A stretch of DNA of 62,071 bases, filler included, from Candidatus Nezhaarchaeota archaeon WYZ-LMO8 (GTDB taxonomy: Archaea > Thermoproteota > Methanomethylicia > Nezhaarchaeales > WYZ-LMO8), in the NCBI GenBank assembly GCA_004347965.1. It is 5 parts of 5 records of this genome, joined end to end, with 100 filler letters (N's around TTAATTAATTAA, not from the genome) between each part and the next. Parts side by side here need not be neighbours in the genome. Positions count along the whole stretch, not along the records: positions 13,761 to 27,173 come from QNVF01000034.1; 4 more parts are not named here. One strand, given 5' to 3'. Positions 18,001-21,000 of this stretch are shown one piece after another; position 1 is the stretch's first letter; every line of letters begins with the position of its first letter. The position numbers were made by a program.

Positions 18001-21000
18001 ACGGTCAAGAAGTTCAACCTATTGTTTCAAACTACGATAGGTCCATACAGCGAGAACGTGGGATTCGCTAGACCTGAAGCTGCTCAAGGGATGTTCACGA
18101 CATTTAATAGAGTCTACAACGTCATGAGGAATAAGCTGCCATTGGGTATAGCCCAGATAGGCAAGGTAATGAGGAACGAAATCTCTCCTAGACAAGGTCC
18201 CATAAGGCTTAGGGAGTTCACTATAATGGAGCTTGAGTTGTTCTATGACCCTCAAGAGCCATCTTGCCACGTGCTAGATAAGAACGAAGTTCTTAGACTG
18301 GTCCCTGAAGATAGCGTCGCTAAGAAGGATTTGACCCCTCTAGAGGTTACCGTTGAGGAGGCATTGAGAAAAAGATTGGTAGCATGTGAGTGGCTTGCGT
18401 ATTTCATGGTATTAGCTCAAAAGTTTGTTCAGGAGCTTGGAATCCCATGGGATAAGCAGATGTTCGTTGCTAAGCTACCTCAAGAGAGAGCTCACTACGC
18501 AACGCAAGTCTACGATCAGGTTGTAAAGCTTGAGAAGTGGGGTTGGATTGAAGTTTCAGGGCACGCGTTCAGAACTGATTACGACTTGAGGGGGCACATG
18601 GCGTCAAGCGGAGAAGATCTGAGAGTCTATAAGCAGTTCCAGTCTGAGGTTGAAGTTGAAGAGGTTGAAGTGAGACCTTTGGTAGACGCGATAAAAGAAG
18701 ACTACGAGACTGATGCCTCCGCAATAATCAATGCATTGAAAATGATGCCGGGAGAGAGGGTGCTTGAAGAGATTAAGAGTAAAGGCTTCTTTGAAATGGG
18801 AGGATATAGAATTTACCCCAAGCACGTTAGCTTTGAGAAGGTTAAGAAAAATGTCAAAGGGAGGAAGTTCATACCGTTCGTTGCTGAGCCATCGTTTGGG
18901 GCTGAGAGACTCGTTTACGCATCTATGGAGTATGCGTATAGAGAAAAAGATGGTAGAGTGATATTATCGTTTCCACCGGACATAGCTCCAATAGAAGCTG
19001 TGGTTCTACCACTAGTGAATCGAGATGGTCTTCCAGAAAAGGCTAGAGAGATCTACGGTATGCTAAGCTTTAGAGGGCTGGTGGTAGAATACGATGATTC
19101 AGGGTCTATAGGAAGGAGGTATGCGAGGGCTGACGAAGTTGGTGTTCCGCTTGCAATAACTGTTGACTACCAAACACTGAGGGATGACACCGTAACTGTA
19201 CGAGATAGGGATACTTGGAAGCAAGTAAGGGTTAGGATAGAAAAGTTGCCTGAGATCGTTGAAGTATATATTAAGAGACGAGAGTTAAAAGAACCTTTAA
19301 AGAAACTTTTTGAGTAAACTGTCAAATATTAAGAACGGAGCTGATGACCTTATGAGCAGGATTGTAGAGAAGAGGTTAAAGTTGAGGAAGAAGGATGAAG
19401 TCCAAGAAGGAACTGCGCGAATTAATCCAAAGACAGCTGATTTCTTGGGCATATCAGGCAAACTGGAAATAGTTTTAGCTGGAAAAAAGAGGTACAACTT
19501 CGATGTTATTATCAGTGGGGGAGTGCCAGTTAATGAGGTGTGGCTTAACTCAGAGCAAATGAGGAGGTTGGGGATATCGGACAACACAACAGCAACAGTC
19601 AGGAAGCCATTAACTTCGACAGCTAGGCCTTAATACGTTTCAGGACTTGATTGTAGTATCTTTCTCTCCTAGTCAATACTATTTGTTGAAAAGTGGAACT
19701 CTTAGTCTGAACTTCCTCAAGCCAACCAGCTACTAAACCATGTTCATCCTTAGTAAGCTGCATCCTAAACTCCTCGACATACGAGACTATCCTAATTGGC
19801 TCGATTCTAAACAGCTGAGACCCTCTGACCTCAACAACCTCTATTTCGTACTTCGACGGCATGAACGGTGCATAACGATCGTCAACCACTCTTACAATAG
19901 CTTCTACGAAGCCTAGGCACTCTACGTTGACCAGCTTGTCGTACTCGTTTACCACTTCATCCCACCTCAAGATAGGCTCAAACTCAAACTTTACTACTCG
20001 ATTTAACTTCTTGGAGTTTAAGAGACCATAAATTAGCTTTCTTCGTTGGTGTTCTAAGTACTCCTTCACACTATACCTCTTAAAGCGCCAGTTTAAGAAG
20101 CGAGACTCGTCTACCACATCAAACTCATTAATCAACAGACCATCGTTGTAGAGCTCAGCTAAGACACTTCTAAGTTCATCAAGCTCCCTGGTTCCATAGA
20201 TCGTGAAGTCCAAATCACTGAGATCTATCCTATAGAAGTTGTGGAGTAGTGAACCGAAAACGCCAAAGTCATCAATCCTAAGTTTTGATGTCTCCTCAAT
20301 TAGCTCAAGAACTTCAAGGGATGCATGTGACATTTGATCGTCCTTGCTTAGCAACCTCTTTAAGCCATCTTGAGGTCTACGTAGCTCCAATAGTTGATCT
20401 TCACTCACAGCTACAACCTTCCTCTTAAGGTACGGGATGTAGAATGAGTATTGAGGATAACCTGATAGGACGAACTTCAATCCTTCATCCTCGTAGAATT
20501 TGTAGTACCTCTGACCTCCGCCATCTCTAAGGGCCTTAGGAACGTTGCTCTTGTAGATCTTCTCAGGGGCATACTCGACATCACATATGTATCTTCCTTG
20601 AGGGTGATCGTAGCCGTAGACCCTCATTATTATCCCCTCACTAGTTACTGGGGCATCTCTGTCCCTCAACATACTCAACACAACTTTTGCAGCAGGTAGG
20701 GGTGTTAAGGACTATTGTTACTCATAAAGTTCTTTACATCTCGAATTATTGCCTCCAAGCTCACATGCTGCCTCATCTTATTAACCCAGTCACGTGGAAG
20801 ATAGCGTTTAAAGGATCTTGCAGATCTCGAATCCATTAAGATGACGAGCCCTCGGTCTTGAGGTCCTCTTATGAGCCTACCAGCTGATTGAGCGATGGCT
20901 ATTGAGCAGGGCATTATTGTTGCGTACTTGAAGGCTTGATCTCCAAACCTCACCTTAAAGTATTCTGTTAATGCTTGATGAAGTTCTGTATTTCTTGGGA

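Follow-up and report, generated by a model that had tools for sequence, protein, structure and literature searches.

Genes and features at the locus

The gene described here lies in the window—the whole 62,071-nucleotide stretch (filler included) of Candidatus Nezhaarchaeota archaeon WYZ-LMO8 DNA that was analysed—and the evidence supports its product as a conserved archaeal Pol-beta-type nucleotidyltransferase (NTase) that has a beta domain at its N-terminus and an OB fold at its C-terminus. A summary of the gene, its domains and its neighbours is available in Table 1. The open reading frame has a maximal span of 19623..20681, with the stop codon at 19623-19625. An earlier note on this DNA gave the protein 348 aa, which corresponds to a TTG start at 20669; the likely start is an ATG one codon earlier (20672-20670), giving 349 aa and an N-terminus of MLRDRD, and a GTG at 20681 is an alternative. 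The 349-aa start is supported by the database proteins P0002 (identical, 349 aa) and P0003 (84% identity), both of which begin MLRDRD.

As described earlier, the NTase gene sits directly downstream of an XPD helicase gene—the two share a strand and are 32 nt apart. The helicase has Pfam matches to DEAD_2, HBB and Helicase_C_2, along with a match to NCBIfam TIGR00604 (5.3e-68) whose 230 bits fall below the 247-bit cut-off. At its 3' end the NTase gene is overlapped by a convergent ORF with weak matches of the double-psi-barrel type, both sub-threshold (PF01568, E 0.0012; PF02359, E 0.12); we list this ORF as a neighbour by position and claim no membership of a system for it. A paralogue is present in the same genome, again in agreement with the earlier note (C67 11512-12561, 349 aa, 25% identity, E 4e-17).

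Table 1. The NTase gene, its domains and motifs, and adjacent genes (positions in the window).
Feature	Position	Strand	Basis and remarks
Clade-A member of the MJ1086-like Pol-beta nucleotidyltransferase family	19623..20672	minus	ORF list, start-region reading, tree
N-terminal beta-rich domain, residues 1-98	20376..20669	minus	Secondary structure of the model; small SH3/Sm-like barrel and one helix
Pol-beta-type nucleotidyltransferase core, residues 99-245	19935..20375	minus	Weak PF18765 match, PF01909 matches in the family, VIA
FGVFGS motif	20250..20267	minus	Translated from DNA; clades A-D all keep G136, G139 and S140 invariant
S151-D152-L-D154, metal-binding D-x-D motif	20208..20219	minus	Translated; invariant or at least 0.86 in four clades
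C-terminal OB-fold domain, residues 246-348	19626..19934	minus	VIA and Foldseek
XPD/Rad3-family helicase gene	20705..22666	minus	Pfam and NCBIfam; 653 aa
Convergent 107-aa ORF	19310..19633	plus	Overlaps the 3' end of the NTase gene by 11 nt

Domain architecture and catalytic motifs

The AF2 model of the window protein is confident (pLDDT 94.0, pTM 0.90) and reproduces the three domains reported before: a small beta-barrel, a Pol-beta NTase core and an OB fold. In the first of these H22-P23 is invariant family-wide, and R16, C29, D30 and E32 are invariant in clade A. Folded alone, the N-terminal domain retains a pLDDT of 92.8. It found no VIA match at Z≥5 among 48,161 chains, which is no proof of a new fold; its strongest matches, to Sm/LSm and KOW domains, are weak and reach at most Z 4.4. 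Foldseek with this domain alone against the PDB gave a best E of 0.5 and nothing at E≤1e-3.

The only Pfam match of the window protein is PF18765 (Polbeta) on residues 132-187, which at E 0.0025 and 18.4 bits lies under the 26.9-bit cut-off; NCBIfam gave no match, so the protein indeed lacks an above-threshold family match, and sequence searches of the PDB with the single protein or a 22-sequence profile were also empty. The wider family is more informative: at E≤1, 27 members matched 16 Pfam families overall, with PF01909 in 24 of the 27 (best 6.9e-10) and PF18765 in 16. Together with VIA matches to the Trf4 and TUT7 cores (Z 7.0-7.2), these matches identify a minimal NTase domain. The pattern that characterizes the Pol-beta NTase superfamily—hG[GS], then [DE]x[DE] on the next strand—is present as FGVFGS140 and S151-D152-L-D154; re-read from the DNA, this G-S...D-x-D signature proved invariant across 22 aligned homologues, as the earlier note had it for 17. 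More broadly, G136, G139, S140, S151, D152, D154 and E238 are conserved at 0.86 or more in each of four clades (182 members), and are invariant in a 27-sequence alignment spanning clades A-D and MJ1086. Two further carboxylates, E229 and E231, are invariant in clade A only; these two and E238 are candidates for the third catalytic carboxylate, which in the superfamily sits on a later strand. After the catalytic strands the model shows helices (residues 160-211), then strands, then the OB fold.

The C-terminal domain is a five-stranded OB barrel: VIA matches residues 248-348 to 4me3, an MCM N-terminal domain (Z 8.2 over 81 aa at rmsd 3.2), and to the SSB structure 3ulp (Z 8.2), at a strength similar to that found before. 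Foldseek of the whole model against the PDB, again consistent with the earlier result, gave nothing at E≤1e-3; its best match (E 7.3e-3) is SSB 3lgj on the OB domain.

These structural likenesses underlie the proposal of the earlier note that the family tails nucleic acids. On that proposal, the enzyme would add nucleotides to RNA or DNA 3' ends without a template, as TUTases and Trf4 do; the OB domain could then hold the single strand, and XPD might be a partner in repair. The nearest solved structures to the core (residues 108-234) are, as before, TUT7 8oef (Z 7.2, 95 aa, rmsd 4.0) and Trf4 3nyb (Z 7.0), followed by TUT1 9j8p (Z 6.7); the Pol-beta core is likewise shared with editosome TUTases. 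However, scores of Z 7-8 are VIA's stated background level and are common for any model. The matched part covers about 91-95 residues at rmsd 3.5-4.0, and the family differs from Trf4, TUT7 and TUT1 in its domain order and flanking domains: neither the PAP-associated domain (PF03828-type) that follows the catalytic domain in Cid1 and Trf4, nor any other RNA-enzyme domain, was found in 27 members at Pfam E≤1, and there was no match to the central domain. Four of these 27 do have weak MTPAP-like palm-domain matches (best E 0.0056).

The flanking domains can be read in two ways. The C-terminal 100 residues resemble OB folds of SSB, RPA and the MCM N-terminal domain (Z 7-8.2, 72-83 aa, rmsd 2.3-3.5), as well as those of the editosome (Z 7-8), and the weak Sm/LSm and KOW likeness of the N-terminal barrel would also suit a tailing enzyme. 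In contrast, sequence identity to the SSB/RPA/MCM-type folds is 5-22%, the OB residues conserved in clade A are mostly acidic (D264, E277, E299, E300, E309 and E318 versus R293, R302 and K344 in 22 sequences), and the window protein has a pI of 5.8.

The helicase gene, whose adjacency the earlier note had named as unchecked in relatives, offers some further encouragement for tailing: XPD lies directly upstream in 6 of 82 sources, all Nezhaarchaeales-type loci, and 2-4 genes away on the other strand in 8 Asgard-type loci, and L093 has an XPB-like helicase some 1.6 kb downstream of its family gene. Against this, helicase adjacency is confined to few lineages; CitG, in contrast, co-occurs with the family and adjoins it (below) across many. 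No RNA-processing genes recur among the neighbours of family loci; the gene context is instead metabolic. With background-level scores, no PAP-associated domain found, mostly acidic conserved residues in the clade-A OB domain and a CitG/cofactor context, we consider 3'-end tailing distinctly unlikely.

Family distribution and paralogous clades

A database search returned 1350 homologues at E≤1e-3; the figure in the earlier note was 857. Counts also differ for the family's presence in Thermoproteota, previously given as 16 of 61 genomes and here, with a broader profile, 151 of 301. Family matches were also found in 56 of 81 sampled Asgard genomes, bearing out the wide occurrence in TACK and Asgard archaea, and they extend to methanogens. 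Half of the Thermoproteota and two thirds of the Asgard genomes in these samples thus carry the family—our literature search found no description of it, or of an archaeal CitG-nucleotidyltransferase pair.

In the tree the family forms four paralogous clades, A-D, with catalytic motifs intact in all of them. Tandem copies, noted before in some relatives, are in fact the rule, and the usual order of the gene cluster is B-A-C. The window gene belongs to clade A, which sits on a long branch and whose specific invariant residues are mostly acidic. One methanogen member is the uncharacterized Methanocaldococcus jannaschii MJ1086 (UniRef Q58486; 340 aa), which matches PF01909 at 6.9e-10; P0177, the representative of its cluster, matches the clade-A profile at E 1.4e-38. 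MJ1086 is of the same family and length class as the window protein but of a different clade, nearest to clade A in a tree position read without support values; its name was not mentioned in the literature that our search returned.

One member hints at a metabolic function. P0259 is a fusion in which the pterin pyrophosphokinase HPPK (PF01288, 3e-40, residues 8-134) precedes the family domain (residues 176-484), and it groups in the tree with the CitG-adjacent clade. A metagenome scan with this fusion recovered two HPPK-only loci and no second fusion, and a broad-alignment search found no longer fused forms of 633-2000 aa, which is weak evidence.

Genomic partnership with CitG

The most consistent companion of the family is CitG, the ATP:dephospho-CoA triphosphoribosyl transferase family, whose matches we counted at 1e-5. 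Among 301 Thermoproteota genomes, 140 carry both, 11 the NTase family alone, 5 CitG alone and 145 neither; at least one of the 11 (G053) has a weak CitG-like neighbour. The association persists within family-level groups: in f23 the 12 genomes of 18 that have the one also have the other, and so do 2 of 11 in f30. In the Asgard sample CitG is present in 52 of 56 family-positive genomes and is broader than the family, being found in 14 of the 25 family-negative ones. Related genomes are not independent, so these co-occurrence counts overstate the number of independent events.

Two other cofactor genes served as comparators. RFAP synthase, a methanopterin marker, is over its cut-off in 93 of the 301 Thermoproteota genomes and tracks the family far less well than CitG does. 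MoaE, with 231 of 301, is spread too widely to account for where the family is found; it occurs in 21 of 24 f4, 14 of 14 f15 and 20 of 20 f18 genomes, and the family there in 0 of 24, 0 of 14 and 0 of 20.

The partnership extends to gene order. In the first locus set, 29 of 82 sources have CitG within ±6 kb of a family gene. Of the 23 family-level groups for which both coordinate sets were visible, at least 13 have the two within about 3.5 kb of each other (f2, f3, f5, f19, f22, f24, f26, f31, f35, f37, f38, f45 and f46); family coordinates here were the best 150 of 353 matches, which leaves the count of non-adjacent groups uncertain. Among the loci inspected—one set of which was picked because the CitG and family coordinates already looked close—same-strand operons with the two genes abutting or overlapping occur at L096, L104, L105, L106 and L107, and a Sulfolobus-type operon has the order DUF1464-NTase-CitG. 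The genomic partnership with a CitG/MdcB-type transferase holds for the family taken together, and clade A is tied to it indirectly: the CitG-adjacent copies are mostly C-like or basal in the tree, and clade-A genes are usually one or two genes off, or unlinked. The clade-A gene is not beside CitG in the window's genus, and in the window's own genome some 27 kb separate CitG, on C67/C71, from the clade-D copy.

A proposed pathway and its alternatives

Because the family travels with a CitG-like ribosyl-triphosphate transferase, it is more likely to help build a cofactor or prosthetic group than to tail RNA. The reading that we favour, tentatively and as slightly short of probable, is that the MJ1086-like NTases act in one pathway with the CitG-like enzyme, an analogy to the MdcB/MdcG and CitG/CitX pairs of bacteria. 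According to the passages on these proteins in PMC5534430, MdcB and MdcG install 2'-(5''-phosphoribosyl)-3'-dephospho-CoA on the carrier protein MdcC, and MdcG is related to "an ancient class of nucleotidyltransferases". The archaeal family shares with MdcG/CitX this nucleotidyltransferase kinship and, by co-occurrence and adjacency, the CitG/MdcB partner; it also carries the G-S/D-x-D site that attack on an alpha-phosphate requires. The CitX and MdcG Pfam models matched none of 27 members at E≤1, and the analogy is therefore a functional one that does not rest on family membership. Further differences are the additional N-terminal barrel and C-terminal OB fold, the archaeal distribution, the multiple paralogues and the lack of a carrier-protein gene among the neighbours seen.

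If the analogy holds, the CitG-like enzyme would first take ribose-5-triphosphate from ATP, with adenine lost, and join it to a precursor hydroxyl. A hydroxyl of the acceptor would then attack the alpha-phosphate at the NTase metal site, with pyrophosphate released, to leave a phosphodiester-linked phosphoribosyl group on the acceptor. The N-terminal barrel and OB domain would form the pocket for acceptor and donor, and the clade-specific invariant residues in both could give clades A-D different substrates; clade A would presumably share the role of the CitG-adjacent clades. OB folds and Sm-like barrels are also typical of nucleic-acid binders, which counts against the cofactor reading. Cofactor genes recur near the family in varied arrangements (an MptN-like ligase, Ftr, DUF447, LarB/LarC/LarE, CoaBC and MoaD/MoaE, detailed below), and with the HPPK fusion they count in favour of this reading. 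The context points to a pterin-type (methanopterin-like) or a CoA-derived product, serving as cofactor or prosthetic group. The tight partnership with CitG offers a concrete, testable biochemical hypothesis for two orphan families, and either target would correct the tempting but weak label of RNA tailing.

A different reading is protein modification. Here the enzymes would place a CoA-derived phosphoribosyl group (the true CitX/MdcG reaction), or AMP/UMP, on Ser/Thr/Tyr of specific proteins, one target per paralogue, with the N-terminal and OB domains as protein-recognition modules. Canonical CitG does use dephospho-CoA, and CitX/MdcG modify a carrier-protein serine, as stated in the same passages (PMC5534430). 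Two distant lineages have CoaBC next to family genes (L012, L015, L032, L073 and L096), several paralogues per genome would fit several targets, and uncharacterized small ORFs are present in the f26 and f29 operons. Some small ORFs among the neighbours had no family match, but neither a CitD/MdcC-like carrier nor a conserved small acceptor was recognised there; the recurrent neighbours are, by eye, a small wHTH-like regulator and a polytopic membrane protein of 260-290 aa. Most carriers of the CitG homologue showed no other citrate lyase or malonate decarboxylase parts near these genes. With pterin and C1 genes nearby and the HPPK fusion pointing to a small molecule, modification of proteins appears decidedly unlikely; a CoA-derived prosthetic group, were it the target, would mean swinging-arm chemistry in archaea.

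Pol-beta enzymes commonly transfer NMP from NTPs, and the family could also do so within the CitG pathway. It would then A-, G- or C-nucleotidylylate a phosphorylated cofactor precursor—pterin/molybdopterin, nickel-pincer nucleotide or a CoA precursor are candidates—and the CitG product would not be its donor. Several neighbours are in keeping with such a role: MoaD/ThiS and MoaE lie directly upstream of the family gene in L093, MobB adjoins the B-A pair in Bathyarchaeia and CitG in L111, MoaE and CitG lie two genes apart in the genome of the window, and LarB/LarC/LarE adjoin clade B or D copies in L008, G147 and the window's own genome. The HPPK fusion would fit as well. However, MoaE is far broader than the family, and to our knowledge MobA, CofC and RibL already cover such nucleotidylyl transfers. 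This alternative also gives no reason for the tight coupling to CitG, and we regard it as rather unlikely.

The phosphoribosyl-transfer reading that we favour has a more specific version, in which the family and CitG supply long-missing steps toward a methanopterin-type C1 carrier, clades A-D making lineage-specific side-chain variants. The aminophenyl-ribitol-pterin intermediate would receive ribose-5-triphosphate through CitG, and the NTase would join the alpha-phosphate to hydroxyglutarate or another head group with release of pyrophosphate. Among the cofactor genes that recur in different arrangements, an MptN-like RimK ligase is near family genes in 5 loci (NF040720, 3.7e-82, below cut-off), Ftr is near them in L010, L019, L109 and L111, and DUF447 directly follows CitG in L105, L112 and L115. 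Studies of "archaeal-like" genes in methylotrophs reportedly place a CitG-like orf7 and a DUF447-like gene in the dephospho-methanopterin gene set. In one gene table (PMC11533326), mch, an alpha-L-glutamate ligase and a triphosphoribosyl-dephospho-CoA synthase occupy consecutive rows.

The marker enzyme RFAP synthase co-occurs loosely with the family, and the family-positive groups f5, f7, f16, f22, f35 and f37 have weak cross-matches alone. In one f35 genome (G108) Ftr lies beside the family cluster although the RFAP synthase match is weak, and the marker may therefore miss divergent forms. The RFAP synthase pattern neither confirms nor kills the methanopterin version, which we hold to be rather unlikely. 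A methanopterin-like target would fill steps for which the relevant entry of a 2011 inventory still listed an "estimated 7 unknown proteins" (PMC3087415).

Other recurrent neighbours

The NCBIfam search left DUF447, DUF1464, the recurrent membrane protein and the CitG homologues of archaea unnamed. We set aside the KTI12/PSTK-like and SelB genes next to the Asgard pair, the Cdv genes of Bathyarchaeia and carbamate kinase, which look like conserved local synteny with no bearing on function.

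The window gene and its predicted structure

The nucleotidyltransferase (NTase) gene has a start region that reads GTG-TTG-AGT-ATG-TTG; translation from the ATG at 20672 gives a 349-aa protein starting MLRDRD, a start common to the database proteins P0002 (identical) and P0003 (84% identity, from a Nezhaarchaeales genome). The earlier note described this ORF correctly: a helicase gene lies upstream on the same strand, 32 nt away, the best Pfam match is PF18765 (Pol-beta) at a sub-threshold E of 0.0025, NCBIfam holds no match to the protein, and PDB sequence searches with the protein and with its profile returned zero matches. 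The convergent 107-aa ORF matches Molydop_binding (E 0.0012) and CDC48_N (E 0.12), both weakly. Elsewhere on the same contig, window 14913-16471 holds a thiolase-like gene (PF22691, PF00108) and, after it, the gene of a DUF35/ChsH2-type protein with an OB domain and a zinc ribbon (PF01796, PF12172), a pairing familiar from archaeal acetoacetyl-CoA thiolase/HMG-CoA synthase complexes. The run of N at window 13661-13760 joins C27 to C28, and features are not readable across this joint.

Coordinates of the features discussed (window positions, unless residues or contigs are named)
Feature	Position	Strand	Basis
Contig C27	1-13660		
Contig C28, bearing the NTase gene	from 13761		
NTase gene	ORF 20681 down to stop 19623-19625	minus	ORF list
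XPD/Rad3-type helicase gene, 653 aa	20705-22666	minus	DEAD_2, HBB, Helicase_C_2
107-aa ORF, convergent on NTase gene, 11-nt overlap	19310-19633	plus	weak double-psi-barrel-type matches
N-terminal domain, small beta-barrel and one helix	residues 1-98		model
NTase core, carrying FGVFGS140 and S151-D152-L-D154	residues ~99-245		model
C-terminal domain, OB fold	residues 246-348		model
Own-genome CitG gene, split over two contig ends	G000:C67:38671-39513 and C71:1-270		

The AlphaFold2 model (pLDDT 94.0, pTM 0.90, with a 22-sequence alignment as input) bears out the fold previously described, with an N-terminal beta domain, a Pol-beta core and an OB fold. The structural neighbours named before were also recovered, at equally modest strength: the OB domain resembles the MCM N-terminal domain 4me3 and SSB 3ulp (both Z 8.2), and the core resembles TUT7 (Z 7.2), Trf4 (Z 7.0) and TUT1 (Z 6.7), where a Z of 7-8 is, by the structural tool's own statement, the level typically reached by models without real relatives. 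Foldseek gave the model no match at E<=1e-3. Folded by itself, the N-terminal domain reached pLDDT 92.8; none of 48,161 chains matched it at Z 5, the top matches (Z 3.3-4.4) were Sm/LSm and KOW/SH3-like barrels and MazF/CcdB, and its lowest Foldseek E-value was 0.5. The RNA-tailing role put forward in the earlier note is weakly founded, as it draws on generic fold similarity (core Z 6.7-7.2), and no RNA-related genes recur among the neighbours of the examined family loci.

Family members and paralogous clades

Homologues of the window protein at E<=1e-3 number 1350, and a profile search of cluster representatives gave 987 matches at the same cut-off, of which 130 reach <=1e-30. Members are annotated as 'hypothetical protein', 'predicted nucleotidyltransferase' or 'nucleotidyltransferase domain-containing protein'; their sources include Nezhaarchaeales, Bathyarchaeia, Thermoprotei and Odin-, Jord-, Frey- and Baldrarchaeia, with M. 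jannaschii MJ1086 as a remote member. We compared 82 sources, made up of the window region, the locus of its paralogue in the same genome and the best 80 of 368 confirmed loci of relatives; together they hold 193 family genes. A tree of 182 members, each of at least 250 aa, contains clade A (80 members, the window gene among them), clade B (54), clade C (34) and clade D (14, including the own-genome paralogue). Of the 82 sources, 24 have the gene order 'B+ A+ C-', 23 have 'B+ A+' and 16 have A by itself; 6 show 'A+ C-', 3 show 'B+ D+ A+', and a few have some other order.

Residues G136, G139, S140, S151, D152, D154 and E238 are kept across clades A-D, as are H22, P23, P271, Y274, G315 and E318, and by this conservation all four clades seem to be competent for catalysis. 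Beyond these, every clade has invariant residues of its own, which in clade A include R16, C29, D30, E32, N181, E182, E229, E231, E299 and E300; the differing invariant residues of the putative pocket suggest different acceptors or donors. When reference sequences are added to the tree, of which we read the topology only, most CitG-adjacent copies group with clade C and some with D, Thermoproteia-type copies form a basal group, and clade A, on a long branch, has MJ1086 nearest to it.

The second copy reported for this genome is indeed present: the assembly holds one clade A and one clade D gene, the latter on contig C67. Four same-genus genomes have three family matches each, the third copy being C-like (as seen in G147 and G179); since the window's genome is an estimated 93% complete, its own third copy may simply be unassembled.

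Helicase adjacency

Proximity to XPD stands as reported for the window, and fails as a general trait. Of the 82 sources, just six have the helicase directly upstream: the window and five loci of Nezhaarchaeales type (L003-L007). Eight Jord/Frey-type loci have it 2-4 genes upstream on the opposite strand, and none was seen in the remaining 68. One Thermoproteia-type locus (L093) has an XPB-like helicase downstream of the family gene. Helicase adjacency is too little basis for a repair role.

Association with CitG

In 301 Thermoproteota genomes, evenly drawn at completeness >=80%, the family profile occurs in 151 and CitG in 145; 140 have both, 11 the family without CitG, 5 CitG without the family and 145 neither. 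The two genes occur in the identical 12/18 genomes of family-level group f23, 2/11 of f30 and 3/4 of f5, and neither was found in f4 (24 genomes), f10 (44), f15 (14) or f18 (20). As comparators, RFAP synthase (above cut-off in 93/301, with weak matches only in several family-positive groups) and MoaE (231/301, f4, f15 and f18 included) track the family far less well than CitG does. Among 81 Asgard genomes, 56 have the family and 66 CitG (both 52, family without CitG 4, CitG without family 14, neither 11). Genomes in these tables are related rather than independent, and the number of events is overstated; a chance association is still unlikely, since the two genes also split alike inside groups and recur together in another phylum.

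In 29/82 sources, all Bathyarchaeia, the surrounding +-6 kb include a CitG homologue (PF01874, 2.5e-65), which adjoins clade C or stands one gene off. This linkage could be inherited synteny, so we compared distant lineages. The complete 2.06-Mb genome G085 (f26) has one family gene, in an overlapping operon ordered DUF1464 - family gene - CitG (4.9e-40) - metallophosphoesterase-like ORF, with CoaBC near; in G053 (f29) a family gene is followed by an ORF without assignment and then a weak CitG-like ORF. In a biased sample of twelve further loci, picked for coordinates hinting at proximity, CitG directly abuts a family gene in seven (L104-L109, L112), is separated by one or two genes in L110 and L111, and is not adjacent in L113-L115. 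Overall, 23 family-level groups were compared, and in at least 13 of them CitG and a family gene are <=~3.5 kb apart—coordinates were available for the best 150 of 353 family matches, which leaves 'not adjacent' groups uncertain. In Asgard archaea, CitG is 3-12 kb from one tandem family pair in at least 11 genomes. On one side of the own-genome CitG lie a lyase gene resembling HpcH/CitE and two ORFs that, judged by eye, resemble succinyl-CoA synthetase; on the other side lie Arcadin-1 and MoaE.

In a Thermoproteia-type operon with CitG, the family gene has its start overlapped by DUF1464 (PF07318, 3.4e-119; L096:9311-10210), another orphan family, which may belong to the same pathway as CitG and the NTase.

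A proposed role in cofactor synthesis

The strongest available evidence connects the family with chemistry of the CitG type, in the synthesis of a cofactor or prosthetic group. In bacteria, MdcB/CitG yields 2'-(5''-triphosphoribosyl)-3'-dephospho-CoA, and the NTase-related MdcG/CitX transfers the phosphoribosyl-dephospho-CoA group to a carrier-protein serine (PMC5534430). The archaeal family has the predicted metal-binding site that such a transfer needs, and archaeal CitG homologues as its constant companion, from which we infer a division of labour as in MdcB/MdcG. Archaeal CitG would make an intermediate bearing ribose-5-triphosphate; the family NTase would then let an acceptor hydroxyl attack the alpha-phosphate, with pyrophosphate leaving. 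For the clade-A window gene this mechanism is a tentative proposal, a little short of an even chance. The link of clade A to CitG chemistry is indirect: it belongs to the same family, and its gene mostly shares an operon with B and neighbours C, but in the window's genus it stands alone beside XPD. The family is a new architectural variant in the Pol-beta nucleotidyltransferase superfamily and, with its function as predicted, a new functional one as well; a literature search, supplements aside, found no description of it or of an archaeal CitG-nucleotidyltransferase pair.

Two kinds of product can be weighed. Pterin and C1 neighbours favour a methanopterin-like cofactor, as does P0259 (505 aa), a natural fusion of 6-hydroxymethyl-dihydropterin pyrophosphokinase (HPPK; PF01288, 3e-40) to a C-like family domain. 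The methanopterin side chain has an alpha-ribosyl-5-phosphate that is phosphodiester-linked to hydroxyglutarate. CoaBC, beside clade A in four Bathyarchaeia loci and also near the f26 operon, favours a CoA-derived group, together with canonical CitG chemistry. Neighbours of the C1 type include Ftr (L010, L019, L109, L111), formylmethanofuran-dehydrogenase-like genes in Bathyarchaeia, and MptN-like RimK ligases in 5 loci, which score best against the model for tetrahydromethanopterin:alpha-L-glutamate ligase (3.7e-82, below cut-off). The RimK neighbour does not discriminate between methanopterin- and methylofuran-type C1 cofactors, because a RimK-like MptN homologue of methylotrophs acts on methylofuran instead (2021, PMC8141765). 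For methanopterin biosynthesis, a 2011 inventory table lists an 'estimated 7 unknown proteins' (PMC3087415).

Other recurrent neighbours

The Lar neighbourhood suggests a link of the family to the nickel-pincer cofactor. LarB, LarC and LarE genes occur beside clade B or D copies in L008 (Thermofilaceae), G147 and the own genome: in L008 all three sit between the clade-B and clade-A copies, and on C67 (L002:3-1360) the clade-D paralogue adjoins LarB (NF033503, 2.4e-66) and a nickel-insertion gene resembling LarC, with an aminotransferase gene after them, a layout repeated in a same-genus genome (L099). In some lineages MoaD/MoaE, MobB and a metallophosphoesterase lie near family genes, and DUF447 immediately follows CitG in three lineages.

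In many Bathyarchaeia (L022, L036, L037, L039, L043 and others) the family cluster is flanked by a Cdv cell-division cluster (Snf7, CdvA, Snf7, Vps4) and the formylmethanofuran-dehydrogenase-like genes; such long conserved synteny calls for caution when neighbours inside a single order are used to infer function. Between clade C and CitG (L022:8098-8868 and ~20 other Bathyarchaeia loci) stands the gene of a conserved membrane protein, polytopic and 260-290 aa long, that matches no Pfam or NCBIfam model, and a conserved ~159-aa, winged-helix-regulator-like protein lies upstream of clade B.

In six Jord/Frey-type loci (L013, L014, L016, L018, L029, L041) the gene immediately upstream of the tandem pair encodes a PSTK-like kinase (TIGR03574, 4.5e-64, below cut-off), and in 5 of the 6 genes for ketol-acid reductoisomerase and for a SelB-like factor of archaeal type follow. 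The PSTK-like and SelB genes next to the Asgard pair have their place in selenocysteine decoding, and the arrangement is probably unrelated synteny.
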